64,000 bases of DNA from Patescibacteria group bacterium (GCA_022709865.1 JAKLIA010000001.1:210740-274739); one strand, 5' to 3'. Shown: positions 587 to 23,592, counted from the first letter of the stretch. Made by a program: numbers and translations. The notes: a model not told the origin generated them from the letters alone.

Positions 587-1348
587 ATGGAAGCAAAAAA
601 TCCGAATAAAAAAGTCATAGCAGTTTTACCGGCTTATAATGCTGCTAAAACCGTAGAAAAAACCGTTAACGATATTTCTCGAGAATGGGTGGATGAAATT
701 ATTTTGGTTGACGATGCTAGTCGCGATAATACAGTTGAAATAGCCAAAAAACTCGGATTAAAAACTTTTGTGCATCCTAAAAACCGGGGCTATGGCGGCA
801 ACCAAAAAACTTGCTATAAAGAAGCTTTGGCGGCCGGAGCGGATATCGCGGTTATGGTGCATCCGGACCATCAGTACGATCCTAAACTTGTGCCTGAGCT
901 TTTAAAGCCAATATTGGCGGGGGAAGCGGATGCGGTTTTTGGCTCACGGATGATGTTTCCTAAAAATGCTTTGGCTGGCGGAATGCCTTATTGGAAGTTT
1001 TTAGCTAATATATTTTTGACTTTTATTGAAAATCTTTTTTTAGGTCTGAGCTTGACCGAATACCATTCTGGTTTTCGGGCTTACGGCCGGCAGGTTTTAG
1101 AGGCGGTGCCGCTGGAAAAAAACTCCGATGATTTTGTTTTTGATACCGAAATTATTGCGCAAATAAAAGTGGCCGGGCTTAAGATCAAAGAGGTGCCGAT
1201 CGCCACACGTTATTTTTCCGAGGCTTCGCAGATCGGCCTGTTAAAAAGCATTAAATATGGCTTATCGGTTTTAAGCGTGATGAAAAAATATATTTTTTTC
1301 AGGCTAGGAATAAAAAAATACGAACAGTTTAAGATCAACCAAAATTAA
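587..1348 (+). CDS. Family 2 glycosyltransferase, Dpm1/GtrB-like polyprenyl-phosphate sugar synthase type
   Basis: N-terminal GT-A fold with VLPAYNAAKTVEKTV...VDDASRDNT and the D-x-D region, about 250 aa, typical of dolichyl/undecaprenyl-phosphate hexosyltransferases. Confidence 0.8.
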   Translation: MEAKNPNKKVIAVLPAYNAAKTVEKTVNDISREWVDEIILVDDASRDNTVEIAKKLGLKTFVHPKNRGYGGNQKTCYKEALAAGADIAVMVHPDHQYDPKLVPELLKPILAGEADAVFGSRMMFPKNALAGGMPYWKFLANIFLTFIENLFLGLSLTEYHSGFRAYGRQVLEAVPLEKNSDDFVFDTEIIAQIKVAGLKIKEVPIATRYFSEASQIGLLKSIKYGLSVLSVMKKYIFFRLGIKKYEQFKINQN

Positions 1349-1355
1349 TTTAGGC

Positions 1356-2441
1356 ATGATAAAAGATTTTTTTATAAAAAACAAAGAATTAGCCTTGATT
1401 TTTTCTTTGGCGATTTTAGGCTTAGTGGTTTCTTATTTTTATATTGGCTATGACCATAGATTAGAAAAAGATGCGATCACTTATTTTGAGGCAGTAAAGT
1501 TTTTGCAGGGGCAGGCGCTTGATGGGCCGGTGCCGATGAATAGGGTCTTGACCACGTCATTATTTTTGGGCTTAGCCACTTTTTTTAATTTTTTTCTTAA
1601 AGATTTTAGCTTAAGCGTGTCCGCCCTAAATATTATTTTTTACCTTCTTTTTATCGGTGTCTTTTATCTTTTAGCAAAAGAGATATACCAAAAAAGTAGG
1701 GTGGCCTTTTGGGGCTCTTTATTGGTTGTGTCTAATTATTATTTAATAGACCCGGGCAACGCCCACTTAGCGGATATGGGCGGCTGGTTTTTTCTATTTC
1801 TAGCCACATATTTTGCGGTTAAATATACCAATGCGGCCGATAGGAGGTTCTATTATTTAGCTATTTTGGCATCGGCAATAGGCGTTTTATACAAGGAATA
1901 CGGAGGCTTGGGCTTAGTTAACCTATTCTTGCTTCTATTAGTTTCAAATTTTTCCAATAAGCAGAAAATAAAAGACATTATTTTAGCTGGCTGTTTATTT
2001 TTGGTTCCGTTTTTGTCTTACCATGTTTTTGTTTATTTTAAATACCACTATTCTTATTTTGATTGGTATTTAGCGGTCAAATCAGTCTCTTTTGAGGCTG
2101 GGCGGCAATCCCGAGGGATAATTATAATTGCTAAGATATTGGGCTGGGTTTTTTCTCTTGGTTGGCTGGCTTGGCTGTTGGGAATCAAGGAAGAAATAAA
2201 AGCGCAAGATAAAGGCCGCTGGAAGATTCTAATCGCTATTTTGCCTACTTCTTTGTTCTTTATTATTTGGCCGGAGGTGGCTCAGCGCTTGGCATTTATC
2301 TTAGTGCCGTGGCTGGCTTTGGTCGCTGGTTTTGGGCTGTCCCGGATAAAGCCATATTGGGCTGGAGTTTTTGTTGCGGCTTATGTTTTATTTAATTACA
2401 ATATAAGGTCTTTAATAGATATAATTAATTTGCCTTTCTAG
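1356..2441 (+). CDS. Polytopic membrane protein, possible GT-C-fold glycosyltransferase
   Basis: At least 9 predicted transmembrane helices and no soluble domain. It sits between a Dpm1-like GT2 and an ArnT/PMT-like gene. Confidence 0.35.
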   Translation: MIKDFFIKNKELALIFSLAILGLVVSYFYIGYDHRLEKDAITYFEAVKFLQGQALDGPVPMNRVLTTSLFLGLATFFNFFLKDFSLSVSALNIIFYLLFIGVFYLLAKEIYQKSRVAFWGSLLVVSNYYLIDPGNAHLADMGGWFFLFLATYFAVKYTNAADRRFYYLAILASAIGVLYKEYGGLGLVNLFLLLLVSNFSNKQKIKDIILAGCLFLVPFLSYHVFVYFKYHYSYFDWYLAVKSVSFEAGRQSRGIIIIAKILGWVFSLGWLAWLLGIKEEIKAQDKGRWKILIAILPTSLFFIIWPEVAQRLAFILVPWLALVAGFGLSRIKPYWAGVFVAAYVLFNYNIRSLIDIINLPF

Positions 2442-2443
2442 CC

Positions 2444-3796
2444 ATGGATATTTTAAAAAAAACCAAAGATTGTTTTTTAAGCCATAAGGTTTTAATTATA
2501 ATCTTATTGTTGTCTTTTTTGGCTAGCCTGGCTTATTCTTTCTATTTTAAAATTGTGCCGGCGGTTGATGCCCGGGCCTACGATAATATTGCCCAGAATA
2601 TTGCCAGTGGCAATGGCTACCGGGAATATTTAGCAGGGGATTTGGCAAGTGATTATGCTATTGCCCGGGTGGGACCGCTTTATGAATACTTTTTAGCCGG
2701 GATCTATAAAGTTTTTGGCCATAGCTACAGCGTAGTTTGGCTTTTCCAAGCATTATTGCACGCAGCCAGCGCTTGGCTGATTTATTTGGCCGCGTTGCTG
2801 ATTTTTTCTGCCAACGATAAAAGAAAAAAAATCGCTATTGTGGCAGCAGCAATTTTTGGTTTTTATCCCGATCTAATAGAAATATCGGCGATGCTAATGA
2901 CCGAAACTCTCTATTTGTTCTTTGTCTGTTTAATGGTCTATTTTTTCTTTTTGTTTTTTTTAAAAGGCGGTTATCGGCTAGTTGCATTATTGGGGCTGTT
3001 CTCTGGGTTGGCTGTTCTAGCCCGGCCGCCGGTGCTTTTTTTAGTGCCGGTGATATTATTTTATTTTTGGCAGAAAAGAAATTGGCGCCAAGCATTGCTA
3101 TTTCTGGCCATTTTAATTTTAGTTTTTGTGCCCTGGACCGCCAGAAACTATCAGGTGTATGGGGAAATAATGCCATTTGGCTCAGCTGGGAACTTTAATT
3201 TTTGGATAGGCAATTACCATGGCGGGAACGGGGAGCAGGAGCCGACGATCGAGCAACAACAGTTCTTGCAAACCCATAAAGCGGTGGAAATAAACTCGGA
3301 ATCAATGAAGCATTTTAAAGAGTTCTTGTTTGCTTATCCGGCGGAGTTTTTAAAATTAACAGCGCTGCGCGTCAATAAATACTTCAGCATTATTCGCCCT
3401 ATGGGTTTTTGGTTCTATCAGGCTGGAATCGGGCAGATGATATTTGTTTTCTGTTCAGCTATTGCTTCGGTTTTTTTATTAGTTTTTGGGTTAGCTGGGG
3501 CAATAAAAGCTTGGTCAGCAAAAGAGAAAAAACTTAATTATTTGCTGGCTTTTTTAGCCTTTACTCCCTTAATAATTTTTGCTACAGTGGTGGAGACGCG
3601 ATACAGGTTTCAGATATATCCTTTATTGACAATTTGTGCTAGTTATTTTGCTATTGAGGCGTTAAATGTGCAGGGATGGCGGAGGCAAAAATTATTTATA
3701 GCCTCAGCCATAATTATTTTTTTTAATGGGTTTATAGATATGCTTTTGAGTTGGGAAAAGATAAAAGATAGATTTGGGTCATTTTTTAATTTTTAA
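2444..3796 (+). CDS. GT-C-fold membrane glycosyltransferase (ArnT/PMT-like, GT39/GT83 family)
   Basis: 450 aa with multiple transmembrane helices. The first loop region (VDARAYDNIAQN...GNGYRE) and the ARPPVLFLVPV motif resemble ArnT/PMT_2 proteins. Confidence 0.6.
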   Translation: MDILKKTKDCFLSHKVLIIILLLSFLASLAYSFYFKIVPAVDARAYDNIAQNIASGNGYREYLAGDLASDYAIARVGPLYEYFLAGIYKVFGHSYSVVWLFQALLHAASAWLIYLAALLIFSANDKRKKIAIVAAAIFGFYPDLIEISAMLMTETLYLFFVCLMVYFFFLFFLKGGYRLVALLGLFSGLAVLARPPVLFLVPVILFYFWQKRNWRQALLFLAILILVFVPWTARNYQVYGEIMPFGSAGNFNFWIGNYHGGNGEQEPTIEQQQFLQTHKAVEINSESMKHFKEFLFAYPAEFLKLTALRVNKYFSIIRPMGFWFYQAGIGQMIFVFCSAIASVFLLVFGLAGAIKAWSAKEKKLNYLLAFLAFTPLIIFATVVETRYRFQIYPLLTICASYFAIEALNVQGWRRQKLFIASAIIIFFNGFIDMLLSWEKIKDRFGSFFNF

Positions 3797-3829
3797 GCCG
3801 CAAAGATCCGATTTAAACAAAAATAAAAT

Positions 3830-4822
3830 ATGAAAAAAGCGTTAATTACCGGCATCACCGGTCAAGACGGTTCTTATTTGGCGGAACTTTTATTAAAAAA
3901 AGGCTATATTGTGCATGGAGTTGTTAGGCGTTCGTCTAGCTTTAATCGGTCTAGAATAGAACATCTTTATGGGAGCCCAGATAAAGATCCTGCTGGTTTG
4001 GGAACTGCCGGTAATTTTCATTTGCATTATGGTGATATGACAGACTTTATTTCCCTGACAAATATTTTGTCTAAAGTAATGCCGGATGAAGTTTATAATT
4101 TAGCAGCGCAATCACATGTCCAAATATCTTTTGAGACTCCGCTTTACACAACTAGCGCAACCGGCGTTGGGGTTCTTAATTTGCTGGAAGCGATCAGGGT
4201 CCTGGGCTTGAAGTGCAAAGTTTATCAAGCTTCAACTTCAGAGCTTTTTTCTGGGGAAGAGGGCGAGGCGCCGCAAAACGAAAAGACACCATTTAAACCT
4301 AAAAGCCCCTATGGTGTTGCTAAATTGTATGGTTTTGAGATGGCCAGAATTTATCGCGAATCATATGGCATGTTTATTGCCAATGGCATTCTTTTTAATC
4401 ACGAATCTCCCAGGCGCGGAGAAAACTTTGTAACCAGAAAAATTACCAAAGGTATCGCCGCAATTTTAAAGGGAGAGAAGGATTCGATCTATTTGGGTAA
4501 TTTGAATGCTTCTCGGGATTGGGGCTATGCTCCCGAATATATGGAGGCAGCTTGGCGGATGCTGCAGCAAAAGAAGCCGGATGATTTTGTTGTTGCCACC
4601 GGCGAAACGCATACTGTTAAGGAGTTCGCTCAAAAAGCTTGCCAGCTGGCAGGGCTGGATTTTAAAAAAGTTATCAAGACCAATAAGGCTTATTTAAGGC
4701 CGAACGAAGTGAATTATTTATGCGGCGATGCTTCCAAGGCTAAAAAAGTTTTAGGTTGGTCGCCAAAAGTTAGGTTCAATGAATTGGTAAAAATAATGGT
4801 AGATTATGACACAAAAAAATAA
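3830..4822 (+). CDS. gmd: GDP-mannose 4,6-dehydratase
   Basis: MKKALITGITGQDGSYLAELLLKKGY...FHLHYGDMTD...YNLAAQSHV...ILFNHESPRRGENFVTRKIT is near-diagnostic for Gmd. Confidence 0.9.
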   Translation: MKKALITGITGQDGSYLAELLLKKGYIVHGVVRRSSSFNRSRIEHLYGSPDKDPAGLGTAGNFHLHYGDMTDFISLTNILSKVMPDEVYNLAAQSHVQISFETPLYTTSATGVGVLNLLEAIRVLGLKCKVYQASTSELFSGEEGEAPQNEKTPFKPKSPYGVAKLYGFEMARIYRESYGMFIANGILFNHESPRRGENFVTRKITKGIAAILKGEKDSIYLGNLNASRDWGYAPEYMEAAWRMLQQKKPDDFVVATGETHTVKEFAQKACQLAGLDFKKVIKTNKAYLRPNEVNYLCGDASKAKKVLGWSPKVRFNELVKIMVDYDTKK

Positions 4823-5915
4823 TCAAAAATATATTCGGGTTTGTGAGCCGTATATAACCCAAAAAGAAATAGATGCTGTTTCTCGGGCCATTAAAGAAGG
4901 CAATATTTCCAGCACCGCTAAATATGTTGGGCTTTTTGAAAAGGCTTTTGCCAAAAAGTTTGGCGTTAAATATGCTGTGGCAGTTAATTCGGGCGGATCG
5001 GCTTTATTTTTGGCCTTATGGGCCTTAGGCATCAAAAAAGGAGATGAAATAATCGTGCCAACTTTTACTATGGTGGCTACGGCTAATGCGGTTGTCCAAT
5101 GCGGCGCCAAGCCCGTGTTTGTGGACTGTGAAGAAAATGGCAATATAGATGTTAAAAAAATAGAAGAAAAAATTACCAAAAAAACTAAAGCAATAATTCC
5201 GGTGCATATTTATGGCCACCCTTGCGATATGGACGAAATTATGGCAATCGCTAAAAAACATAAATTGTTTGTTATTGAAGATACGGCTGAGGCCCATGGG
5301 GCTTTGTATAAAAATAAATTAGCCGGAACTTTTGGCGATATGGGCTGTTTTAGTTTTTATGCAAATAAAGTGATGACTACAGGTGAGGGTGGAATGATAA
5401 TTACCAATAACGCAGCTTTATATAAAAAATTAATTAAATTAAAGGCTTATTATTTTCATGACAAGCGCCATTTTTGGCACGAGCAGCAAGCTTGGAACTT
5501 AAGAATGAGCGCTTTGGAAGCATCTTTGGGTTTGGCGCAGCTGGAGCGCTTAAACGAGTTAGTCTCTTTGAGGCGAGAAAATGCCCGGTACTATACTGAT
5601 AAACTGCAAGGCCTGAAAGATTATTTAGTTTTTCCTTCAGAAAAGAAGGGGGCAAAATCGGTCTTTTGGATGTATGGATTGGTGCTTAAAAAGGGCAATC
5701 GAGACAAATTAATGAAGTTTTTGGAAAAAAATGGCGTGGAAACGAGAACCTATTTTTTCCCGATGAATTGGCAGCCTATTTATAAAGAAACAGAACCGTA
5801 TCCGGTAGCTGATCGGTTAGGCAGAAATGGATTATATTTGCCTTCTTCTTCTCATTTAACAAAAGCGGAAAAAGATAGAATAATCGGTCTTGTAAAAAAA
5901 TTCTTTAAAGCTTAA
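4806..5915 (+). CDS. DegT/DnrJ/EryC1/StrS-family PLP aminotransferase, probably GDP-perosamine synthase
   Basis: Fold-type I sugar aminotransferase. A Lys in the NK..TTGEGG region fits the PLP site. It overlaps the gmd stop by 17 nt, which favours a GDP-4-keto-6-deoxymannose substrate. Confidence 0.75.
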   Translation: MTQKNNQKYIRVCEPYITQKEIDAVSRAIKEGNISSTAKYVGLFEKAFAKKFGVKYAVAVNSGGSALFLALWALGIKKGDEIIVPTFTMVATANAVVQCGAKPVFVDCEENGNIDVKKIEEKITKKTKAIIPVHIYGHPCDMDEIMAIAKKHKLFVIEDTAEAHGALYKNKLAGTFGDMGCFSFYANKVMTTGEGGMIITNNAALYKKLIKLKAYYFHDKRHFWHEQQAWNLRMSALEASLGLAQLERLNELVSLRRENARYYTDKLQGLKDYLVFPSEKKGAKSVFWMYGLVLKKGNRDKLMKFLEKNGVETRTYFFPMNWQPIYKETEPYPVADRLGRNGLYLPSSSHLTKAEKDRIIGLVKKFFKA

Positions 5916-5917
5916 AA

Positions 5918-7006
5918 ATGGATAATTCGGTTTTTGTCATTCCCACTTATAATGAAAGGGAAAATATCGGCAGGCTTATTGAGAAAATATTTGAACTTTC
6001 GCCTGAGGCGAAAGTTTTGATCGTGGATGACAGTTCTCCTGATGGAACCGCTCAAACAGTAAAAGAGCTTCAGGGAAAATATCCGGGATTATTTTTATTT
6101 GTTCGTCCGGTAAAAGAGGGCTTAGGCAAGGCGTATGTGGCGGGATTCCAGAAAGTTTTTAACGATTTCCCGGAAGCGAAGACGATTTTTATGATGGACG
6201 CTGATTTTAGCCATGACCCCAATGATTTGCCGGCCATAATTGAAAATTCAAAAAAATATGATGTGGTTATCGGTTCTTGCCATATAAATCCCAAAGAGGG
6301 AATGAGCGAGTACCCTTTCAAGCGCGCGCTTTTGAGCCGTTGGGCTAATTTTTATTGCCGTTGTATTCTAGGCAGAAAATTACGGGATTGGACGAATGCT
6401 TACATGGCAATTTCTGTGCCGGTTCTTAAAAAGATAAGCTTTGATAAATTACAGGCCAAAGAGTTTGCTTTTCTTTTTGGTTTAAGATACCTGCTTTTAA
6501 AAAACAAGGCGACTTTTAAAGAGATTCCGACGATTATTCGATTAAGGAATGCCGGAGAGTCAAAAATGGCTCTCTCAACCATTATGGAAGCGGTAATTAT
6601 GCCTTGGGAAATAAGGTTTGGCCTTCCGGCTCAAGTAGTTAAGTTTTTGATCTCTGGCGGAACGGCTACCTTGGTCGGTTTTATCGCGCTCTACGCCTTT
6701 ACCGAGTTTGCGGGCATTTGGTACCTATTTTCAGTCGTTCTGGCTTTCATTTTTTCTTTTATCGTTAGCTTTACTTTGCAGAAGTTTTGGACTTTTGATG
6801 ACCGGCGAACGGAAAAAATGCACCACCAAGCCTTTTTTTATTTGTTGACCACTTTAACTAATTTGCTCTTAAACCTTTTGATAGTTTTTTTGCTGGTGGA
6901 AAAAGCCGGCCTTTGGTATATGCTAGCGCAATTTATAGCCGAGGCGGTGATAGCTGTGGAAAGCTTTTTGGTCTATAAGTTTGCTATTTTTAAGGTTAAA
7001 AAATAA
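5918..7006 (+). CDS. GT2 polyprenyl-phosphate sugar synthase fused to a C-terminal GtrA-like membrane domain
   Basis: N-terminal Dpm1-like GT-A domain (VIPTYNERENI...VDDSSPDGT...MDADFSHDP) followed by four transmembrane helices with GtrA-like features (LISGGTATLVGF...QKFWTF). Confidence 0.75.
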   Translation: MDNSVFVIPTYNERENIGRLIEKIFELSPEAKVLIVDDSSPDGTAQTVKELQGKYPGLFLFVRPVKEGLGKAYVAGFQKVFNDFPEAKTIFMMDADFSHDPNDLPAIIENSKKYDVVIGSCHINPKEGMSEYPFKRALLSRWANFYCRCILGRKLRDWTNAYMAISVPVLKKISFDKLQAKEFAFLFGLRYLLLKNKATFKEIPTIIRLRNAGESKMALSTIMEAVIMPWEIRFGLPAQVVKFLISGGTATLVGFIALYAFTEFAGIWYLFSVVLAFIFSFIVSFTLQKFWTFDDRRTEKMHHQAFFYLLTTLTNLLLNLLIVFLLVEKAGLWYMLAQFIAEAVIAVESFLVYKFAIFKVKK

Positions 7007-7027
7007 TACATAGCATTTTTATTTAGC

Positions 7028-8476
7028 GTGAAAAATATTTACGAAAAAGTTTTTATTGTTTTTTTAGTGGCCATTACTCTTTTTTTTGCGGCCTATAAAC
7101 TGACCGAAAGCCCGCCGACTTGGTTTGATGAGGGTTTTGTTATCCAGTCGGCTGAAAATTTGGTAAACGATGGAATTATGGGTATAAAGATAGAACCGGA
7201 TCTAATTGTCCATAATGCCACGTTTTTTTCAACCGGTTTTCCGCTGGCCTATCCCGTAGGCTGGGCGATGGAGCTTTTTGGCCGGGGGCTTTTGCCGGCA
7301 AGGTCGGTAATGGTTCTCTTCACTATTTTGTTGGTTTTGCTGTGCTATTTTTTGGCTAAAAAAATATGGGGGTTCAAAATAGCGGCTTTTTCTTCTCTTT
7401 TGCTTGTCGGTTTTGCTCCGTTATACGGTAACGGCCGGAACGTTTTGGGCGAAGTTCCCGGCGTTTTTTTTCTGGTTCTTTTTTTATATTATCTTTATAA
7501 GATCGAGAAAAAAAAGTTTGTTGGCAGCTATTCAGACTATATAATGGCTGGTTTATCTGTAGCGCTTTGTTTATCAACTAAGTCTATTTTTTTAGTTCTG
7601 CCTTTAGCTGTTATTTTGGCTTTAATTATTTTTTATAAAAACATAGCCTGGGATTGGCGGCGGATTTTGGCTGGCTTGGCGGCCGGAAGTGTAGTAATAG
7701 CAGTTTTATTAAAAACTCAATTTTTAGGCGGCGGGCCGCTAGTGGATGTTTTGCGAGATTATGCTAATCCTTATGCCGTAGGGGATATGTCAGTTCTTGT
7801 TTGGCAAAATATAAAAAGATTTTTTACGGAAGGCACGCCGATCTATTTGCTGGGAACAATGCTTATTTGGCTTCTGTCCTTGGCGATAAGAAAAATTAGA
7901 TCGGAAACAACTTCTTTAACAGAAATAGTTTCTTTCTTTTTTTCCTTGTTCATTTGCTTATCTTATTTGCGGATGGTCGGGTGGTATAGATATCTTTTTG
8001 CCGCCCAAATATTATCTTTACTTTTTTTGCCGGCTTCCTCGTTAATAATGTTTGAGTGGTTGAAAAGTAAGTTTGCCTGGAGCCGGAATATTAATATAAA
8101 AATAGTATTTATTCTATTCGGGGTTTTAATTGGGGCGCAATTCCTCTATTTGCATTATTTTTCCTGGACGGCCAGCTATTATTATAGCCGGGCAACGTCA
8201 AGCCTGGAAAATTATTTTAATCGAATTGATTTTTCCGAGAAGATATTCTTGTATAATTCTCCGGAAATTGCCACTTTTTTGCCGTCAAAAAATTATTACC
8301 AATATTTAAAAATTAATGATGAACTGATCTTAGGGCAAGACCAGCTGAAACAAATAACGGTTGGTGTGCCCAATAAAGTAATAGTCAATAATAAAGAAGC
8401 GTCGGTGATGGCTGATTTTCCTTTATATCAGGAGGCAGGGGCAGTTAGCCGGTATTTGATTTTTGAGAAGAAATAA
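7028..8476 (+). CDS. GT-C-fold membrane glycosyltransferase (ArnT/PMT-like)
   Basis: 482 aa. The first periplasmic loop carries a WFDEGF acidic motif like the catalytic D-E of ArnT/PMT. It is polytopic. The start is probably GTG at 7028, since there is no in-frame ATG upstream. Confidence 0.6.
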   Translation: MKNIYEKVFIVFLVAITLFFAAYKLTESPPTWFDEGFVIQSAENLVNDGIMGIKIEPDLIVHNATFFSTGFPLAYPVGWAMELFGRGLLPARSVMVLFTILLVLLCYFLAKKIWGFKIAAFSSLLLVGFAPLYGNGRNVLGEVPGVFFLVLFLYYLYKIEKKKFVGSYSDYIMAGLSVALCLSTKSIFLVLPLAVILALIIFYKNIAWDWRRILAGLAAGSVVIAVLLKTQFLGGGPLVDVLRDYANPYAVGDMSVLVWQNIKRFFTEGTPIYLLGTMLIWLLSLAIRKIRSETTSLTEIVSFFFSLFICLSYLRMVGWYRYLFAAQILSLLFLPASSLIMFEWLKSKFAWSRNINIKIVFILFGVLIGAQFLYLHYFSWTASYYYSRATSSLENYFNRIDFSEKIFLYNSPEIATFLPSKNYYQYLKINDELILGQDQLKQITVGVPNKVIVNNKEASVMADFPLYQEAGAVSRYLIFEKK

Positions 8477-8493
8477 TTCAAGAAGAAGCTATA

Positions 8494-9669: not shown

Positions 9670-9677
9670 ATAAACTT

Positions 9678-13722: not shown

Positions 13723-13733
13723 TTTTATAGCCA

Positions 13734-14579: not shown

Positions 14580-14588
14580 TTAATTCTG

Positions 14589-15323: not shown

Positions 15324-15324
15324 T

Positions 15325-16200: not shown

Positions 16201-16213
16201 TTTTTTTAATTTT

Positions 16214-16750: not shown

Positions 16751-16777
16751 GGATAATAATTAATATCAAATAAAAAT

Positions 16778-18616
16778 ATGTTAGTTTGGGAAAAAGCGAA
16801 GCAATATTTTAAGAGCCATTATTTAGCAATTATTTTTGCTATTTTAGTCGGCTTTATTTATATTGCGCCGAACTTATTTTTTATTATTTCATTGGGAGCT
16901 GGATACCAGGGGATTCCAATGATGCAGACGGCTAATGAAGATTTTTATTTGGCTAGGATCCAAGAAATTATAGACGGCCATCCATTGGTCGGCTCGGCTG
17001 CTTTTTGGGAATATAAGGACCAGCCGCCCATGTCGCCTTCCGGCGGAGAATTCTTTTATGCCTTGCCAAGCAAGCTTTTTGGCATTTCTCCTGTTAATAT
17101 TCTAGTTATCAGCCGTTTTTTCTTTCCGGCTGTTTTATTTTTATTGATATATCATTTGATCAGGCGCTTGACCGGCAACCATAATTTTTTAACAAAAATT
17201 AACGCTATCGCCGGCGGATTATTCGCTCTTTTGGGGTATGACTTGATTGACTATAAAACCATTTGGAACTTTTTTGCTGGAGGGGCGGTTTTGCCGGGGA
17301 ACTTTTTGCTTTGGTCCCGGCCGGTGAATCCCATTATAGGTGGTTTATTATTGTTTTCTTTTTTGCTTTGCCTGGTAGCGATAATTCAAAGAAGTAAATA
17401 TATTAAAACATCAATAGCCGGCGCTGCGGTTTGCCTGGCCTTGATGTTCGAGAATTATTTTTTTAGCTGGGGAATTGCTTTATCTGTTTGGTTTGTCCTT
17501 TTGGCAATTTATTTTATTAAAAAAGAGTTTCAATTAACAAAAAGACTAGCCATAGCTGTCTTTGGCGGATTCATTCTATCGGCTCCATATTGGTATATGT
17601 CTTGGCAGGCGAGCCATAACGCAATGTATCAAGAGGTGGTATTGCGTAGCGGGCTTTTTTTAACCCATTATCCGTTATTAAATAAATTAATGCTGGCAGT
17701 TCTGGTAGTCTATGTATTTTTTGTCGGCTTGCCTATTGTTGGGCGGTTGCGGCTTGTCGGCGGCTGGAAAGAATCCCTAGTCTTGGGGCTGAAAAAAATT
17801 GCGGATTGGCAATGGATCTGTTTAGCTTTTATTATTGGTTCCCTGGTAAGCTATAGCCAGCAGATTATAACCGGCAGGACTATTTGGCCGTACCACTTTG
17901 TGCAATACACTATTCCTCTGGCTATTGTTGTTCTGATGGTTCTGTTCTGCAATGTGATCGGAGCAAGCTGGCCCAAGATTTGGCGGTTAGGGATGTTTGT
18001 TTTGGTCGGCGTCTTTTTAATTTGGGGCAGCTTCAATCAAATAAATGTTTACGGCCGCTATTACGATTATTATAAAGGCATGCAATCGTATCAGCCGGCC
18101 TTTGATTGGTTGAACAAACAAGAAAAGGATTGCGTAGTTTTAGTCGGCAACGATTTTAAAAGCGGCTATCCTCTTTTTGGGCTGATTCCTGCGTTTACCC
18201 ATTGCAATGTCTATGATTCGTCTTCCGTCGCCTTGCTTATGCCGCAAGAACGCATTTACCATAATTATTTGACCCATTTGCGGCTTCAGGGGGTTAATGG
18301 AGAATCCATAGAGGAATATTTAAAAAATGATAATGGAGAATATCGCGGCTACTTGTTTTCTAATTGGAAGGGCTTATTTAAAGGAGTAAAAGATTTCCCG
18401 GATTTTACAGACCGTTTATTGGAAGAAAGGCTAAAAAATGTTCCAGAAGATTATCGCCGGTTTTTTTCTAAGGATTTTCGAAGCGAACTAAATAAATATC
18501 GGTTGGATTATATCCTTAGTGTCGCTCCAATTAATGAAAAAGTAGGGGAGCAATTGGCCGGAATAAAAATGGTATATAGCTCAAATAATATTTATATTTA
18601 CGATTTTAATAATTAG
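16778..18616 (+). CDS. Large polytopic membrane protein, possibly a GT-C-like glycosyltransferase or polymerase
   Basis: 612 aa, at least 12 predicted transmembrane helices. An acidic motif in the first loop (EDFYLARIQEI) and a C-terminal soluble domain of about 170 aa. No confident family assignment. Confidence 0.35.
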   Translation: MLVWEKAKQYFKSHYLAIIFAILVGFIYIAPNLFFIISLGAGYQGIPMMQTANEDFYLARIQEIIDGHPLVGSAAFWEYKDQPPMSPSGGEFFYALPSKLFGISPVNILVISRFFFPAVLFLLIYHLIRRLTGNHNFLTKINAIAGGLFALLGYDLIDYKTIWNFFAGGAVLPGNFLLWSRPVNPIIGGLLLFSFLLCLVAIIQRSKYIKTSIAGAAVCLALMFENYFFSWGIALSVWFVLLAIYFIKKEFQLTKRLAIAVFGGFILSAPYWYMSWQASHNAMYQEVVLRSGLFLTHYPLLNKLMLAVLVVYVFFVGLPIVGRLRLVGGWKESLVLGLKKIADWQWICLAFIIGSLVSYSQQIITGRTIWPYHFVQYTIPLAIVVLMVLFCNVIGASWPKIWRLGMFVLVGVFLIWGSFNQINVYGRYYDYYKGMQSYQPAFDWLNKQEKDCVVLVGNDFKSGYPLFGLIPAFTHCNVYDSSSVALLMPQERIYHNYLTHLRLQGVNGESIEEYLKNDNGEYRGYLFSNWKGLFKGVKDFPDFTDRLLEERLKNVPEDYRRFFSKDFRSELNKYRLDYILSVAPINEKVGEQLAGIKMVYSSNNIYIYDFNN

Positions 18617-18663
18617 CTTAAATAAAGCTAAAAAAGAGCTTTTGGGCTTTATTTTGATACCTA

Positions 18664-18692
18664 TTGACACCTTTTGACACTAGGATTATATT
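18664..18692 (+). promoter_or_regulatory. Sigma70-like promoter, TTGACA-17nt-TATATT
   Basis: TTGACA at 18664-18669, a 17-nt spacer, TATATT at 18687-18692. It is in the only sizeable intergenic gap inside the glycan locus and follows an AAAGCT/AGCTTT hairpin at about 18622-18640. Confidence 0.4.
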
Positions 18693-18743
18693 GGAGATAG
18701 TGAGTTTATATAGGGGTTTTTATGGCTAGGCGCATTAAATAAC

Positions 18744-19961
18744 GTGATAGTTAAAACAGCGATTATGAGTGAAATCCCATTAAAAGTCTTATGTTTAGGC
18801 TTTTGGTCTCCGCCGCTTATCCGGCCTCGCGCTATTTTGTTGGGCAAGATTATCCCTGAATGGCTTAATCAAGGAATAAAACCGGTTGTGGTTACTTATG
18901 ATAATGGCGGCCAATGGAATGTTGAAGCGCCTGTTTATAGAATCTCTCAATTTGGGCAAAGAGGAAAATTAAAGCAGAACTTTTTTATCAGAAGCGTAAG
19001 CAAATATTTTTATTATCGCCGGTTAACAAAAGAAATAGCAATCTTGATCGAAAAGCATAAAATAAATCTTATTTTTTCTTTTGCCAATCCCCAGGAAAGC
19101 AACATTTTGGGCGCTATGCTGAAAAGAAAAACCGGGATAAAGTTTATATCGCATTTTAGCGACCCCTGGTACGATAATCCTTATAAAATATTTAAGGGGT
19201 TTAATGCCCGAAAGGTTTTAAAACTAGAAAGATTTATTATAAAAAATAGCAGCCGGGTAATTTTTACCAATCGCCAGGCCAAAGAGCTGGTTATGAAAAA
19301 ATACCCCTTAGGCTGGGGTAGCAAGGCGTTAGTTGTTTCTCATTGTTATGACCCTAAAGATTATCCATTAAAAGAAAACTTGGCCGAAGAGCCGGGGAAA
19401 GAATATCTTTTTAGTTATGTGGGCGCGTTTTATAAGGAGAGAAATCCGGAAATATTATTTAAGATTTTTAGCCGCTTGAAGCAAAATAAAAATATCAGAA
19501 AGTTTAAGTTTAGGCTGATAGGCGGCGTTAATGAATATGCTGGATACAGCGAGAGTGAATTAAAAAAGAAAATAAAGGAATATGGCTTGGAAGAAATAGT
19601 AGAAATTATCCCGACCGTGAGCCATAGGGAAAGCTTGCGCTATATGGTCGAGTCAGATTGCCTGATAACCATTGATGCTAATTTTTCAAATAGCCCATTC
19701 CTTCCTTCAAAAGTTATCGATTATGTCGGCAGCAAGAAACCGATATTGGGAATTACGCCAAAGGGCAGCCCCACGGAAGAGCTTTTAGAGAGTGTCGGCT
19801 ATAAGAACTTTACCTATGGCCAAGAAGAGCAATTAGAAAAATATCTTACAGAGTTGCTTGAGGGAAAAATAAAAAACAACAACAGCGTTTTATTAAATAA
19901 GTTTTCTGTTCAAGCGATAACGGCCAAATTAAAAAATATATTCCTTGAAACAATAAATTAA
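18744..19961 (+). CDS. Putative glycosyltransferase (GT-B, GT4-like C-terminal domain)
   Basis: The C-terminal region (PSKVIDYVGSKKPILGI...EEL) resembles the Glycos_transf_1 donor-binding domain. The N-terminus is weakly conserved, and the true start may be the internal Met (MSEIPLK). Confidence 0.35.
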   Translation: MIVKTAIMSEIPLKVLCLGFWSPPLIRPRAILLGKIIPEWLNQGIKPVVVTYDNGGQWNVEAPVYRISQFGQRGKLKQNFFIRSVSKYFYYRRLTKEIAILIEKHKINLIFSFANPQESNILGAMLKRKTGIKFISHFSDPWYDNPYKIFKGFNARKVLKLERFIIKNSSRVIFTNRQAKELVMKKYPLGWGSKALVVSHCYDPKDYPLKENLAEEPGKEYLFSYVGAFYKERNPEILFKIFSRLKQNKNIRKFKFRLIGGVNEYAGYSESELKKKIKEYGLEEIVEIIPTVSHRESLRYMVESDCLITIDANFSNSPFLPSKVIDYVGSKKPILGITPKGSPTEELLESVGYKNFTYGQEEQLEKYLTELLEGKIKNNNSVLLNKFSVQAITAKLKNIFLETIN

Positions 19962-19997
19962 CGGCAAATTATTATTTAAGATTTAATTGTATAAAAA

Positions 19998-20252
19998 ATG
20001 GCTAATAACGAAGAAATAAAGTCTAACGCGGTTTATACCACCGGCGAGACCCAGGAGCTATTAAAGATCAGCAGCAGCACTATAAAGCGCATGCTGAAGA
20101 AAGGCTTGATCAGGGCTAATAAAGTGGGCGGTCAATATAGGATTTTAGGCAAGGAGATACTGCATTTAGTTTCGCCGAAAGTTGAGCAAGAAGCGGTAAA
20201 ATCTTATCTGGGATTAAAACAAAAAGTCGTTAACAAGATTAATAAATGGTAA
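19998..20252 (+). CDS. Small helix-turn-helix DNA-binding protein (excisionase/MerR-like HTH_17 family)
   Basis: YTTGETQELLKISSSTIKRMLKKGLIRANKVGGQYRI is the excisionase-family HTH signature. 84 aa. Confidence 0.55.
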   Translation: MANNEEIKSNAVYTTGETQELLKISSSTIKRMLKKGLIRANKVGGQYRILGKEILHLVSPKVEQEAVKSYLGLKQKVVNKINKW

Positions 20253-20279
20253 GGCAAGAAGCCTAGCCAATTTTCAAAG

Positions 20280-22073
20280 ATGTTTTTACAAAAAAGTAGA
20301 CTCTATCTGTTGTATAAGCTATTTCGCCGGGGATTCCGAGGCCTTCGTTGGCAGATCTTAGCGTTAACAGCTTTTGGCATTCTGGGGGGCCTGCTTGAAG
20401 GTGTGGGCATTAATGCCGCAATCCCAATGTTCTCGTTCTTAGTTGGCGGCGTTAACTTAGGGAACGATTTTATCTCGTTGGCAATTCAACAGTTTTTTGA
20501 TTTTTTTAATATCAGATTTAGCTTTCGCTATCTGCTGATTTTTATTTGTTCGTTGTTTATTCTGCGCGCGGTAATCTTATTTGCTTGCAACTATTTTCGC
20601 ATCAAGATCGCGGCTGGCTATGAGGAAGAAACAAGGAATCGTTTATTCAACAAAACCTTGAAGGCTAACTGGCCGTTTTTGCTTCAGCAAAGGCTAGGGT
20701 ATCTTGATACTATTTTGGCAGTCAACATCCAGAACAACAGCTTATTGCTCCGTTATCTAAGCGGGGCGGTTATGACTCTGGGCGGCTTATCCATGTATAT
20801 TTTAGTTGCCTTAAATATTTCTTTTAATATAACTGTGGCAACATTATTGCTTGGCGCTTTGATGATATTTGTTTTTTATCCGTTAGTGCGTAAAACTAAA
20901 TTGATTTCCCAGGAAAAAGAGGCGATGAATAAAGTCGTTGCCCACCATATTAATGAAAACATTTTAGGAATGAAAACTATTAAAGCTATGCGGCTTGGCG
21001 GGGCGGTGGCGGCGGTGGGCAAGGAATACTTTAAAAAATTAAAGAACTTTACAGTAAAAGTCGCCTTTTTCCAGATCTTAACAGATTCATTGATTCAGCC
21101 AATAGGCCTTATTTTTATTTGTTTGGTTTTTGCAATTTCTTATAAATTGCCCGGATTTAATTTTATCGCCTTGGCGGCTGTTCTTTATTTGATCCAGCGG
21201 ATATTCACTTATATCCAACAGTTGCAATCGCATTTGCATACGGTCAGCGAATCTATTCCTTATTTGCAGGGCACGATCGCCTATGAAAATATGATCTCAA
21301 AAAACGAAGAAGCAGACGAAGGGCAGGACGCTTTTGTCTTTAAAAAACAGCTGGAGTTCAAAAATGTTGATTTTAATTATGAAGGCGGTCGAGAAATCCT
21401 GAAAGGATTAAGCTTCTGCCTGAAAAAAGGAGAGCTGCTTGGCTTGATCGGCCCGTCTGGCGCCGGAAAAACCACGGTTGTGGATTTGATTTTGCGCTTG
21501 CTTAACCAAACCGGAGGAGAGATAGAATTAGATGGAAAGAGCATAAATAAAATTAATTTAGCTTCTTGGCGGGAAAGCATTAGCTATATTGCCCAAGATA
21601 TCTATTTAAAAAACGATACAATCGCTGAAAATATTAGGTTCTACGACGAATCAATTACCGACGAACAGGTAGCGGAAGCCGCAAAAATGGCTAATATACA
21701 CCAGTTTGTTAATAGTTGCCCTAAGAAATTCGATACTATCGTTGGTGAACGGGGAGTGCAATTATCGGCCGGACAGCGCCAACGAATTATTATCGCTAGG
21801 GCCTTGGCTCGACAGCCGCAGATTTTAGTTCTAGATGAGGCGACCAGCGCCTTGGACAATGAATCCGAGACTCAAGTCCAGCAAGTTATTGATAATTTAA
21901 AGAATAAAATTACGGTTTTGGTTATCGCTCACCGCCTTTCTACAATAATTAATGCTGATAAACTATTGGTTTTGGATGATGGCAAGATCGTTGAAGAGGG
22001 CAGGCCGCAAGAACTACTTAAGGATGCCAATTCTTATTTTTATAAAGTTTATAATATAAAAAATAATCAGTAG
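20280..22073 (+). CDS. ABC transporter, fused permease-ATPase exporter (MsbA-like)
   Basis: Six N-terminal transmembrane helices, Walker A GPSGAGKTT, signature LSAGQRQRIIIARAL, Walker B ILVLDEATSALD. Confidence 0.85.
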   Translation: MFLQKSRLYLLYKLFRRGFRGLRWQILALTAFGILGGLLEGVGINAAIPMFSFLVGGVNLGNDFISLAIQQFFDFFNIRFSFRYLLIFICSLFILRAVILFACNYFRIKIAAGYEEETRNRLFNKTLKANWPFLLQQRLGYLDTILAVNIQNNSLLLRYLSGAVMTLGGLSMYILVALNISFNITVATLLLGALMIFVFYPLVRKTKLISQEKEAMNKVVAHHINENILGMKTIKAMRLGGAVAAVGKEYFKKLKNFTVKVAFFQILTDSLIQPIGLIFICLVFAISYKLPGFNFIALAAVLYLIQRIFTYIQQLQSHLHTVSESIPYLQGTIAYENMISKNEEADEGQDAFVFKKQLEFKNVDFNYEGGREILKGLSFCLKKGELLGLIGPSGAGKTTVVDLILRLLNQTGGEIELDGKSINKINLASWRESISYIAQDIYLKNDTIAENIRFYDESITDEQVAEAAKMANIHQFVNSCPKKFDTIVGERGVQLSAGQRQRIIIARALARQPQILVLDEATSALDNESETQVQQVIDNLKNKITVLVIAHRLSTIINADKLLVLDDGKIVEEGRPQELLKDANSYFYKVYNIKNNQ

Positions 22074-22077
22074 ATAT

Positions 22078-23592
22078 ATGGATAATTTAAAAGGCAAAAG
22101 AATATTTATTTTTCAGCAAAGGCTTTGGGGGACTAATTTTGGCTATTTTTTAGCTAAAAAACTGCAGGCTGAAGGCTGTCTTTTGGGCGCTTTGACATCA
22201 ACGAAAAGGACGCATGATTTTTTTGTCTCGCAAGCGGAAGTTAGGCATGAGATAATAGTTAGCTTTGACGAGATTCTCGGCAACCCGGAAAAATACTTGG
22301 CCGGAGATGATTTTCCTCTCCAAGAGATTTGCCAGGCCTTGCAAATAGATTCGGTCTGGCCGATAGCGCGAACGGTGCGTGAATATATTCGGTCGTATAA
22401 AGATAAATACGGTTATGGCTTTAAGCAGAATGTTCCTGATGAGACCATAGTTCTTTATATCAAAGCAGTTTATAAATGTTTGAAAAAAGTTTTTTCTGAG
22501 TTTAAGCCCGATATTATTATTGCGCCTAATTTTGTCTCTTTGCACCATATTATGTTCAATCTTTATGCCAAAGCCCAGGGCATTAAGATGATCTCATTTT
22601 TTGGTTGTAAAATAAAAGGAGTTTCCCTTTTCTATTATGATTATTTAAATAGCGAGGGGCCATTTTTTGACAGGGTAGAAGAGCTTTATCGGGGAGAGGC
22701 TGAATCGCAAAATATCGAAAAAGCCAAACAATATATTTCGGGATTTAGAAAAGAGTTTAAGCGCTTAACTTATGCTCCGAAAATTGATAATAAAAAGAAA
22801 TCTTTGCGGCAAATAATTAAGAGTCATTTAGCTCCTTGGGCCAATATTGCTCGCTGGTATTGGCGCCGGCCAGAAAAAGCATGGGAGGTTGTTGGGGTGT
22901 CGCCTGATTTTCGCCCTCCATATTTTATTTTAAGAGACTATATTGCTAGCAAAAGGTATAAGCATTTTGCTGACAACTTTGAGTATTATCCTCTAGATAA
23001 AATTAAAAAATTTATTTATATGCCGTTGCAAGTTCAGCCAGAAATTGCCATTGACGTGGCTGCGCCATTTTTTTCTAATCAATTGGAAGTGGCACGATTA
23101 GTGGCTATGTCTCTGCCCGAAGACTATGTGCTGGTCGTTAGAGATGCTCCTGCCATGGTTGGCCGCCGGACGCCTTCCTATATGGAAAAGCTAGCCAGAA
23201 CGCCTAATGTTAAGCTGGTTGATTATCGGGTTTCAACTCAGGAAGTTCTAGGACGAGCTGATTTAGTTGTAAGCTTTGGCGGCACGACTTTGGCGGAAGC
23301 GGCTTTTTATTCTAAACCTGGGATTCAAGTTGGCGATTTTGGTATAACCTTAAAACTTCCTAATGTCGTTAAACATACCGATATGACGACCTTAGCTTCT
23401 AAAATTAAAGAAGTTTTGAAAGTTAATTTGAATAACCAAGAATATGAGCGGAAGCTAGAAAAGTATGTGGCGGCTAATTACGATGCCGGATATGAAGTTG
23501 ATTTTTTTGATGTTTGGTATGGGCAAGATAAAGAATTAGCCGAATCAGCCTGGCAGATCTATAAAGCCGAGATAGAGAAGCTAACCAGATAA
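22078..23592 (+). CDS. Polysaccharide biosynthesis protein, KpsS/Capsule_synth-like or TagF-like
   Basis: 504 aa soluble protein. The C-terminal GT-B-like region (LVVSFGGTTLAEAAFYSKPGIQVGD) resembles capsule-synthesis and glycerophosphotransferase families. Its start is 4 nt after the ABC exporter stop. Confidence 0.3.
   Translation: MDNLKGKRIFIFQQRLWGTNFGYFLAKKLQAEGCLLGALTSTKRTHDFFVSQAEVRHEIIVSFDEILGNPEKYLAGDDFPLQEICQALQIDSVWPIARTVREYIRSYKDKYGYGFKQNVPDETIVLYIKAVYKCLKKVFSEFKPDIIIAPNFVSLHHIMFNLYAKAQGIKMISFFGCKIKGVSLFYYDYLNSEGPFFDRVEELYRGEAESQNIEKAKQYISGFRKEFKRLTYAPKIDNKKKSLRQIIKSHLAPWANIARWYWRRPEKAWEVVGVSPDFRPPYFILRDYIASKRYKHFADNFEYYPLDKIKKFIYMPLQVQPEIAIDVAAPFFSNQLEVARLVAMSLPEDYVLVVRDAPAMVGRRTPSYMEKLARTPNVKLVDYRVSTQEVLGRADLVVSFGGTTLAEAAFYSKPGIQVGDFGITLKLPNVVKHTDMTTLASKIKEVLKVNLNNQEYERKLEKYVAANYDAGYEVDFFDVWYGQDKELAESAWQIYKAEIEKLTR

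Follow-up and report, generated by a model that had tools for sequence, protein, structure and literature searches.

A gene locus that probably builds an envelope glycan typical of a group of related uncultured bacteria

The described systems closest to the locus reported here assemble or decorate surface glycans in several ways, and related routes for cationic sugars include Francisella FlmF2/FlmK and mycobacterial PpgS/Rv3779. Among the three-component systems, GtrA/GtrB/GtrC carries out O-antigen glucosylation and CsbB/GtcA/YfhO carries out teichoic-acid glycosylation (PMC11127046, PMC8035078, PMC7389260). The Arn pathway (ArnA/B/C/D/E/F/T) places 4-amino-4-deoxy-L-arabinose (L-Ara4N) on lipid A (PMC12690121, PMC5377068), and in Tannerella forsythia, a polycistronic locus of ~27 kb serves protein O-glycosylation (PMC6120980, PMC5420450). 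Here, we describe a genuine surface-glycan gene region at positions 587-23592 of a 64-kb stretch of DNA (hereafter the window) from a member of the Patescibacteria. These bacteria are abundant, mostly uncultured, and thought to be host-attached, and their envelope chemistry is essentially unknown. The locus probably builds an envelope glycan typical of related uncultured bacteria. With modest confidence, we favor the view that it is a cell-envelope glycoconjugate locus of a type widely shared among Parcubacteria, in which glycan would be assembled and methylated in the cytoplasm, flipped by an ATP-binding cassette (ABC) exporter, and decorated outside the membrane by GT-C glycosyltransferases.

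Listing of open reading frames (ORFs), together with Pfam, NCBIfam, and PDB searches, identified 22 + strand genes packed within 587-23592. These encode three family 2 glycosyltransferases (GT2), four GT-C proteins, a GT9, a GT4, a GT4-like protein, six methyltransferases, a short-chain dehydrogenase/reductase (SDR), Gmd, Per, an HTH_17 protein, an ABC exporter, and a relative of KpsC/KpsS. A first-pass annotation of the region, made from the sequence alone, had omitted three of them (Gmd, 3830-4822; Per, 4806-5915; HTH_17, 19998-20252). The tight packing that it reported was borne out, with intergenic spacing of -20 to +36 nt and a sole exception of 127 nt at 18617-18743. Co-directionality also stood, with all 22 genes on one strand, but is not specific to the locus, as the entire window has only one gene that is not on the + strand; GC skew is positive along the whole 64 kb. 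The borders proposed at 587 and 23592 were not real, and glycan genes extend both ways. Upstream of the window start, a contig with identical genes (L001, JGI sample 3300009776, giving 1.5 kb of upstream sequence) encodes a further GT2 and a B12-binding radical S-adenosylmethionine (SAM) protein, and downstream, glycan genes continue uninterrupted to 36114. The region is, then, only the center of a longer locus that spans at least 36 kb.

The SecA encoded in the window shares 86% identity with that of one metagenome-assembled genome (MAG) and 62-70% with those of Portnoybacteria and other Patescibacteria MAGs. A protein identical to the 612-aa GT-C described below is named Candidatus Portnoybacteria at NCBI. 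Judged by these proteins, the host is a Candidatus Portnoybacteria-like member of the Patescibacteria/Parcubacteria. MurB is encoded in the window, and it is established that Patescibacteria of this type are without lipopolysaccharide (LPS). Scans of the window for tRNA and Rfam families found nothing.

The gene that anchors this type of locus encodes a 612-aa membrane protein, here called GTC600, which lies at the end of the following group:

14589..15323, + strand: GT2, 244 aa (PF00535, 51 bits)
15325..16200, + strand: SDR sugar epimerase or reductase (PF01370, 90.8 bits)
16214..16750, + strand: class-I SAM methyltransferase, immediately upstream of GTC600 (PF13489, 36.5 bits)
16778..18616, + strand: GTC600, 612-aa polytopic GT-C-fold glycosyltransferase of a large family without Pfam or NCBIfam match

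More than 350 full-length homologues of GTC600 were found at ~50% identity in many Parcubacteria lineages, all of them hypothetical proteins without Pfam domains; restriction to Patescibacteria applies only to the named close homologues. When 1.84 billion representatives were searched with a profile, 1750 clusters fell within E<=1e-3, of which 527 reached E<=1e-30. An AlphaFold (AF2) model built from 36 sequences had a pLDDT of 88.9 and a pTM of 0.91, and Foldseek matches to it reached E 7e-7, with AftA and Pmt4 as the best fold matches. The first outer loop after transmembrane segment 1 (T-A-N-E-D) carries E54 in 32/36 and D55 in 30/36 sequences, and D155 is present in 36/36. On this predicted structure, the 612-aa protein is a GT-C-fold glycosyltransferase. 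GTC600 itself had no match in Pfam or NCBIfam, including PMT_2/GT39/GT83 and STT3, and its sequence relation to the PMT_2 family of the locus is marginal (hhalign probability of just 40%, E 3e-4). A transporter identity was rejected, as Foldseek matches to transporters had TM scores of ~0.1.

In two members of the GTC600 family, a GtrA domain is found at the N-terminus (E 6e-16 and 1e-18), and related loci L113, L116, and L117 contain GT2-GTC600 pairs in tandem. Because of these fusions and pairs, the evidence suggests that the GTC600 donor is a polyprenyl-monophosphate sugar, and that transfer is not en bloc. A GT2 of ~240 aa is recurrent upstream of GTC600 homologues, and the GT2 at 14589-15323 is a candidate lipid-phosphate sugar synthase partner here. 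We also considered whether GTC600 could be an oligosaccharyltransferase or ligase that transfers a finished lipid-diphosphate glycan en bloc to an acceptor in the wall or on a protein, in the manner of PglB, AglB, and STT3. Identity of ~50% across orders is unusually high and would fit a fixed acceptor, and the GTC600 gene directly adjoins the HTH-ABC pair in L104, L105, and L144. However, a WWDYG-type motif (regex W[WYF]D[YFWN]G) was found in 0/36 family members, on which ground an STT3-type enzyme was rejected. The lack of any STT3 Pfam match, the monophosphate donors used by AftA and Pmt4, and the existence of GtrA fusions and tandem GT2 pairs likewise point away from en bloc transfer, which we consider improbable.

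Some loci carry several copies of this pair. L088 (5156-6961, 10001-11905, and 11917-13791), L113, L116, and L117 have two to three GTC600 paralogues, each beside its own ~240-aa GT2.

To define the surroundings of GTC600 more broadly, 80 loci obtained from a metagenome scan with the GTC600 alignment were compared with 80 SecA neighborhoods of Patescibacteria genomes as controls. Labels for neighborhood ORFs were taken from BLAST matches to a reference set, comprising the annotated proteins of four related loci and of the window. The counts were as follows:

Class-I methyltransferases: 145 (1.34 per 10 kb) in GTC600 neighborhoods, 1078 kb; 10 (0.09 per 10 kb) in SecA controls, 1133 kb
Sugar C-methyltransferases: 36 in GTC600 neighborhoods; 0 in SecA controls
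FkbM: 24 in GTC600 neighborhoods; 1 in SecA controls
KpsS-like: 35 in GTC600 neighborhoods; 0 in SecA controls
GT2: 67 in GTC600 neighborhoods; 6 in SecA controls
GT4: 47 in GTC600 neighborhoods; 4 in SecA controls
DegT: 54 in GTC600 neighborhoods; 0 in SecA controls

The gene directly before GTC600 (position -1) encodes a class-I methyltransferase in 41/73 related loci. Among the 28 long loci with full flanks, a GT2 is encoded in 27, a class-I methyltransferase in 26, a GT4 in 21, and a KpsS-like protein in 20. Recurrent gene strings are GT2-(AsnS)-MT-MT-GTC600 and GT2-MT-FdtA-DegT-GTC600 (MT, methyltransferase), as well as GT4-FkbM-KpsS-like-HTH-ABC with NeuB and CMP-synthetase genes nearby. 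The conserved core of the locus type is GTC600, an upstream GT2, and one or more methyltransferases. No description of such loci in candidate phyla radiation (CPR)/Patescibacteria was found in the literature searched, coverage of which was incomplete. Often, an asparagine-synthase-like amidotransferase is found among the methyltransferases upstream of GTC600 (22 matches), which hints at amidated uronic acids.

The remaining five methyltransferases of the region are encoded between 9678 and 14579:

9678..10583, + strand: FkbM-family methyltransferase (TIGR01444, 107 bits; PF05050; start taken from the gene call in L001)
10564..11205, + strand: class-I SAM methyltransferase (PF13489, PF08241)
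12346..13143, + strand: FkbM-family methyltransferase (TIGR01444, 87.5 bits; 53% orthologue in L085)
13159..13722, + strand: class-I SAM methyltransferase (PF08242, PF13649, PF08241)
13734..14579, + strand: class-I methyltransferase with N-terminal zinc ribbon and hydrophobic C-terminal tail (PF08241)

The first-pass annotation had counted two FkbM and five class-I enzymes, seven overall. Both FkbM proteins are present (9678-10583 and 12346-13143), but the class-I enzymes number four and the total is six. It had also ascribed a Trm112-like zinc ribbon and a transmembrane tail to one enzyme, in agreement with the CPKC...CSKC zinc ribbon and hydrophobic C-terminal tail read directly in the sequence of 13734-14579; the 40% orthologue of this protein in L085 sits directly upstream of the GTC600 gene. 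The locus was further called unusually rich in methyltransferases. Against the genome background, this stands, with 6 in 23 kb here versus ~0.1 per 10 kb in control Patescibacteria regions, but it is ordinary for the Parcubacteria locus type. Across the 28 long loci, methyltransferases number 3.5 per ~22 kb at the median and 7 at most (controls, 0-1), and the six of the window are therefore at the high end of the normal range for the locus type. Methyltransferase richness is thus typical of the type and not peculiar to this genome.

It could be argued that these enzymes act on small molecules, lipids, proteins, or RNA and are merely encoded here. None reaches a curated family cut-off except for the generic FkbM domain, and the weak matches are to UbiG, MetW, and TehB-type enzymes. 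We nonetheless regard this as very improbable. Orthologues of three of the methyltransferases (13734, 12346, and 10564-like) lie in glycan loci of other lineages, class-I methyltransferases are ~15-fold enriched beside GTC600, and sugar C-methyltransferase-type (Methyltransf_13/14) and TylF-type genes are found within the same loci. FkbM and class-I methyltransferases are also proven glycan modifiers, for example, in the T. forsythia locus (PMC6120980). The earlier assignment of the methyltransferases to glycan modification is consistent with the position of their orthologues in glycan loci of many other genomes.

The first third of the region holds two further GT2 genes, three GT-C genes of the PMT_2 family, and a predicted nucleotide-sugar pathway:

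587..1348, + strand: GT2, Dpm1/PpgS-like (PF00535, 85.8 bits)
1356..2441, + strand: short GT-C (PMT_2), 361 aa, polytopic (PF13231, 29.1 bits vs cut-off 26.1; at least 6 hydrophobic segments)
2444..3796, + strand: GT-C (PMT_2), 450 aa (PF13231, 47 bits; 9 hydrophobic segments)
3830..4822, + strand: GDP-mannose 4,6-dehydratase (Gmd; TIGR01472 equivalog, 456.5 bits vs cut-off 415; PF16363, E 9e-129)
4806..5915, + strand: GDP-perosamine synthase-like pyridoxal-phosphate (DegT) aminotransferase (Per; PDB matches 3BN1/3DR4/3DR7, 291-294 bits)
5918..7006, + strand: GT2 fused to a GtrA/DPMS four-helix membrane domain (PF00535 and PF04138)
7028..8476, + strand: GT-C (PMT_2/GT39-GT83-like), 482 aa (PF13231, 37.9 bits)

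The Per gene overlaps Gmd by 17 nt. Among PDB matches, the perosamine synthetases scored 291-294 bits, with all others at <=265 (ColD, 152-156; ArnB, ~150), and Per retains the Schiff-base catalytic lysine in SFYANK. The LegC model gave 328 bits, under its cut-off of 420. A ColD-type dehydratase was ruled out for 4806-5915 by the catalytic lysine and the much lower ColD score, and a UDP-GlcA decarboxylase (ArnA/UXS) was ruled out for 3830-4822, where the Gmd equivalog is over its cut-off. By these homology-based assignments, Gmd and Per would make GDP-perosamine. The protein at 5918-7006 aligns in full length (residues 6-341, both domains) with the dolichyl-phosphate mannose (Dol-P-Man) synthase of Pyrococcus furiosus (5MLZ, E 1e-31), with ArnC structures next, and is a putative GDP-sugar-dependent polyprenyl-phosphate perosamine synthase. 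The adjacent PMT_2 protein (7028-8476) is the putative transferase for the lipid-linked amino sugar. Gmd, Per, the DPMS-like GT2/GtrA, and PMT_2 together form an Arn-like lipid-phosphate amino-sugar module. In the proposed scheme, Gmd and Per would convert GDP-mannose to GDP-perosamine, from which the GT2/GtrA fusion would transfer perosamine to polyprenyl phosphate, and PMT_2 would pass it on outside the membrane. The logic would be that of the Arn pathway, with another amino sugar and in a host that lacks lipid A. A polyprenyl-phosphate perosamine donor was not described in the literature searched, an absence of evidence only, given the incomplete coverage.

L169 shows the same gene order, Gmd-Per-GT2/GtrA-PMT_2-GT9-MT-GT4, and its PMT_2 orthologue shares 53% identity; among more remote relatives, the 7028-type GT-C adjoins other nucleotide-sugar genes and a GT2. 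In L169, the closest syntenic relative, GT9 seems to be split into ORFs of 137 and 243 aa (9507-10726), which may be a frameshift or pseudogene.

The sole PDB match of the GT2 at 587-1348 is Dol-P-Man synthase 5MLZ (E 1e-9), and its top NCBIfam matches (AglJ, PpgS, and a Dol-P-hexose transferase) are all under cut-off; it is a putative polyprenyl-phosphate sugar synthase and partner of the next two GT-C genes. The 4-5 GT-C proteins suggested by the first-pass annotation come to four, namely, the three PMT_2 proteins over Pfam gathering scores and the 612-aa protein by predicted fold, and in the Pfam check, these candidates stayed GT-C and were not reassigned to transporters. Every GT-C of the locus lies 0-2 genes from a GT2. 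The proposed pairing of GT2 and GT-C is supported by the full-length match of the 5918 protein to Dol-P-Man synthase and by naturally fused proteins, as GT2+PMT_2 and GtrA+PMT_2 fusions occur among homologues of 7028-8476, in addition to the GtrA+GTC600 fusions.

We then consider the enzymes that would work on the cytoplasmic side, with the exporter and other genes of the region, and the only candidate in the window for a primer:

8494..9669, + strand: GT9 (heptosyltransferase-family GT-B) with N-terminal hydrophobic anchor (PF01075, 73.3 bits vs cut-off 22)
11202..12329, + strand: GT4 glycosyltransferase (PF00534, PF13692; full-length orthologues at 40-44% identity in L085, L087, and L088)
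18664..18692, + strand: best sigma-70-like promoter match (TTGACA-17-TATATT, 11/12, top site in 16-24 kb)
18744..19961, + strand: divergent GT4-like GT-B glycosyltransferase (PF00534, 39 bits)
19998..20252, + strand: HTH_17 (MerR/excisionase-type) DNA-binding protein, 84 aa (PF12728, 43 bits)
20280..22073, + strand: type-IV (MsbA/Sav1866/PglK-type) ABC half-transporter (fused PF00664 and PF00005)
22078..23592, + strand: distant KpsC/KpsS-family (PF05159-like) transferase, 504 aa, HP motif (25% identity over 473 aa to a PF05159 protein in L085)
45498..46817, - strand: WbaP-type phosphoglycosyl transferase (PF02397, E 1.6e-51; sole primer candidate in the window)

Pfam confirmed the GT4, GT4-like, SDR, and ABC exporter genes listed earlier. 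The GT9 had been presented as an oddity in an organism of this kind. It is present (PF01075) but is no oddity, with at least 247 homologues, every named one of them from Patescibacteria. GT9 scored 129.9 bits with TIGR02195 (HepII; cut-off 134.6) and far under cut-off with other heptosyltransferase models, and heptose-pathway genes were found neither in the window nor beside the GT9 homologue in L172. The ABC exporter matches MsbA 3B5X (224 bits over residues 75-586) and is a putative flippase for a lipid-linked glycan. It is a fused transmembrane and nucleotide-binding domain protein, not Wzm/Wzt or KpsM/T, which pair a type-V ABC-2 permease with a separate ATPase. Wzx, Wzy, and Wzz domains (PF01943, PF13440, and Wzy_C) were absent from window ORFs of >=100 aa. 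The adjacency of HTH_17 and ABC genes recurs in L104-L107, L144, and L162, often divergent from a KpsS-like gene, and the 84-aa HTH_17 protein may be a dedicated regulator. The promoter-like site lies inside the 127-nt gap; it is a consensus match alone, and the total site count is not above chance.

The 504-aa protein had been described as KpsS/TagF-like. It is a distant relative of KpsC/KpsS, but is itself under the PF05159 threshold, with only a weak Glyco_tran_28_C match; 22/24 aligned homologues match PF05159. The 24-member profile of its family matches KpsC 6MGB (E 2.6e-9) across the VKxHP region, with H357 nearly invariant and P358 invariant. It also gave a weak match (39 bits vs cut-off 200) to NF046086, the T. 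forsythia Pse/Leg-transferase family (PMC5420450). With the CMP-nonulosonic acid genes located downstream, our best guess from sequence is that the 504-aa protein is a nonulosonic-acid (or ulosonic) transferase.

The downstream part of the locus encodes the following:

Within 23607..36114, + strand: B12-radical SAM protein, MaoC, WecB-type epimerase, 417-aa unknown protein, and phosphopantetheinyl transferase (ACPS)
Within 23607..36114, + strand: FkbH-GNAT, acyl carrier protein (ACP)-like ORF, and AAC(3)-like N-acyltransferase
31289-36114, + strand: NeuB-like synthase, NeuC-like hydrolyzing epimerase, SDR, PseB-like dehydratase, and CMP-nonulosonic acid (CMP-NulO) synthetase

The NeuC-type epimerase is above its cut-off (374 vs 236 bits) and the NeuB-type synthase just under (388 vs 400), while the PseB-type dehydratase (325 vs 408) and the PseF-type CMP-synthetase (151 vs 206) are both under cut-off. 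An acyl-carrier module occupies 25217-31284, with a MaoC dehydratase, a phosphopantetheinyl transferase (27976-28356), FkbH-GNAT (28362-30176), an unannotated 77-aa ACP-like ORF (30178-30411, ...WDSINHL...), and the AAC(3)-like N-acyltransferase. By analogy with T. forsythia Pse5Am7Gra, the module points to N-acylation of an amino sugar or of nonulosonic acid with a glyceroyl or hydroxyacyl group.

A 1.6-kb direct repeat (23615-25216 and 40792-42390, 84.7% nucleotide identity) consists of two B12-binding radical SAM genes, whose proteins are 82% identical. These genes flank, on either side, the nonulosonic-acid and acyl genes together with the gene for a putative 1172-aa surface protein. The window start cuts a third such gene (40-570), which is more distantly related. 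C-methylation is possibly a function of these genes, and the repeat could permit recombination or cassette exchange. Right after the glycan genes, 36582-40696 encodes two proteins. The smaller, of 174 aa, carries a hydrophobic segment at its N-terminus and has no Pfam match, and the 1172-aa protein combines an anchor at its N-terminus with a lamin-tail domain and a PQQ-type beta-propeller. The latter might be exposed on the surface and serve as a glycosylation target; the 80 related loci yielded no homologue of it. Further along, at 50273-52931, a polyamine set encoding pyruvoyl-dependent arginine decarboxylase, deoxyhypusine-synthase-family, and agmatinase/arginase-family proteins is unrelated to the glycan locus.

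From family-level gene identities, the GT-C fold, the fusions, and conserved synteny, we infer the substrates, the order of steps, the carrier, and the acceptor of the following scheme. Cytoplasmic GT-B enzymes (GT4, GT9, GT4-like, and KpsC/S-like) would build an oligosaccharide on a membrane lipid carrier, to which the KpsC/S-like transferase would probably add CMP-activated nonulosonic acid from the genes at 31289-36114. The six SAM-dependent methyltransferases, one of them membrane-tethered, would methylate sugars or lipid-linked intermediates; we place this on the cytoplasmic side because SAM is available there. The MsbA/PglK-type ABC half-transporter would flip the product, and on the outer face, the four GT-C proteins would transfer monosaccharides, using polyprenyl-phosphate donors that the three GT2s supply. 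Surface proteins, wall polymers, and lipoglycans are all candidates for the final acceptor. The first-pass annotation had proposed decoration from polyprenyl-phosphate monosaccharides rather than a Wzy or ABC route. Wzx, Wzy, and Wzm/Wzt are indeed absent, but GT4, GT4-like, GT9, and KpsS-like enzymes and an MsbA/PglK-type exporter are present. Given these cytoplasmic GT-B enzymes and the ABC exporter, decoration outside is therefore combined with assembly inside and does not replace it.

Several observations weigh against this scheme. Every substrate in it is deduced, and the genes may be several independent pathways that are merely clustered. For the methyltransferases, NCBIfam and PDB gave only generic matches or uncharacterized structural-genomics proteins, and the sequence therefore does not decide between O-, N-, and C-methylation. 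The three GT2s described earlier as Dpm1-like are all there (587, 5918, and 14589), but that at 14589-15323 is not clearly Dpm1-like, its top NCBIfam matches, PgfS and ArnC, being weak. PF04138 occurs in the window only as the C-terminal domain of 5918-7006, with no free GtrA gene, giving one GtrA-type domain for three GT2/GT-C sets. The neighborhood labels are approximate and biased toward proteins resembling this locus. Finally, no priming transferase is linked to the locus, and the lipid carrier could therefore be polyprenol or a glycerolipid.

The WbaP-type gene, which had been noted as a distant primer, is real (45498-46817, minus strand), but its link to the locus is unsupported by synteny. 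It is near 2/80 GTC600 loci, and in 5/80 SecA controls, it recurs ~6-8 kb upstream of SecA, as here. It was rejected as a dedicated primer on these grounds, being syntenic with SecA rather than with the glycan locus. Upstream of SecA, it is found in L011, L015, and L016, beside a Wzx-like flippase in L011 and L016, and may be a separate conserved glycan-priming unit.

A different reading of the same genes is a mosaic glycan island of several independent systems without a common product: three separate GT2/GT-C decoration systems, a nonulosonic-acid system with the KpsS-like and ABC proteins, and assorted sugar-modifying genes, with surface-glycan genes exchanged and kept together. Gene content between the conserved anchors does differ greatly among loci, PMT_2 being present in just 7/28 long related loci and GT9 in 0/80. 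The best promoter-like site falls within the 127-nt gap, and in L169, the perosamine block occurs as a separate unit. On the other hand, spacing of -20 to 36 nt over 22 genes suggests co-transcription, the anchor set (methyltransferases, GTC600, GT4, KpsS-like, and HTH-ABC) recurs jointly in many lineages, and known three-component systems decorate a glycan that is made by neighboring genes (PMC11127046, PMC8035078). We consider a mosaic rather unlikely and continue to prefer a single glycoconjugate locus with inside assembly and outside decoration.

A bolder version of that preferred reading is possible but doubtful, and we offer it tentatively. GTC600, GT2, the methyltransferases, and the KpsS-like/HTH/ABC genes might constitute a lineage-wide and possibly essential envelope pathway of Parcubacteria, making a methylated lipoglycan or wall glycopolymer, often capped with nonulosonic acid, that takes the role of LPS or teichoic acid. 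Its hypervariable sugar genes would serve host attachment and phage evasion in these episymbionts. Perosamine would be added here through an undescribed polyprenyl-phosphate route.

A recurrent layout anchored by a conserved, unannotated GT-C offers a genetic handle on the Parcubacteria envelope, as both a marker family and a set of enzymes. The predicted sugar features are methyl ethers or methylamines, perosamine, and N-acylated nonulosonic acid, and variable content between conserved anchors is the pattern expected of a surface antigen selected by hosts and phages. If the perosamine module works in this way, Arn-type lipid-phosphate delivery of amino sugars would also cover a GDP-sugar and a bacterium that lacks lipid A.

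Collectively, the locus can be placed among the known systems as follows. As in the three-component systems GtrA/GtrB/GtrC, CsbB/GtcA/YfhO, and GT136 pentofuranose (PMC11127046, PMC8035078, PMC7389260), a cytoplasmic GT2 would make a polyprenyl-phosphate sugar, a polytopic GT-C would transfer that sugar outside the membrane, a domain of GtrA type occurs (here only as part of one GT2 fusion), and auxiliary nucleotide-sugar enzymes beside the GT2 would diversify it. Unlike in those systems, three GT2s and four GT-C proteins with a single GtrA domain occur in one locus, one GT-C is from a family without Pfam or NCBIfam match, the GT-C genes are interleaved with methyltransferases, and the host is a monoderm ultra-small bacterium. 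With the Arn pathway (PMC12690121, PMC5377068), the module at 3830-8476 shares, at the level of protein families, a predicted nucleotide-sugar 4-keto intermediate, a DegT aminotransferase, a GT2 that would load polyprenyl phosphate, and a PMT/ArnT-family GT-C. In contrast to Arn, the predicted sugar is GDP-perosamine from GDP-mannose via Gmd rather than a product of UDP-GlcA via ArnA, the GT2 is closest to archaeal Dol-P-Man synthase, ArnB and ArnC NCBIfam scores are far under cut-off, and no lipid A is expected in the host. Formyltransferase and deformylase domains (ArnA-type and ArnD) were absent from the window ORFs scanned, as were ArnE/F. With neither ArnA nor ArnD, and with closest relatives that differ, the perosamine module is not a member of the Arn pathway.

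The polycistronic T. forsythia locus (PMC6120980, PMC5420450) likewise combines glycosyltransferases, methyltransferases (three in that locus), nonulosonic-acid biosynthesis, and a dedicated HP-motif NulO transferase, the last two being putative in the present locus, and a similar N-acyl (glyceroyl) NulO chemistry is plausible here from the FkbH, ACP, and ACPS genes; the T. forsythia locus differs in using a Wzx-type route, in having no GT2/GT-C pairs, and in having known target proteins. Group 2 capsule KpsS/KpsC (6MGB/8FUW) shares a PF05159-family HP-motif CMP-ulosonic-acid transferase beside an ABC exporter, whereas the exporter here is a type-IV MsbA-like half-transporter without KpsD/E and the predicted sugar is a nonulosonic acid, not Kdo. 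In the Agl pathway of Haloferax volcanii (AglJ/G/I/E, AglP, AglD and AglS, AglB; PMC3871713), a SAM methyltransferase acts on the lipid-linked glycan and the final sugar is delivered separately as a Dol-P-sugar and added outside, which resembles the model proposed here. That pathway is archaeal and dolichol-based, with the AglB oligosaccharyltransferase, and no WWDYG-type enzyme was found in our locus. The building blocks are all of known kinds, and it is their combination in one locus that is new, together with a large, methyltransferase-linked GT-C family without Pfam or NCBIfam match, a predicted perosamine donor, and a Parcubacteria-wide architecture.

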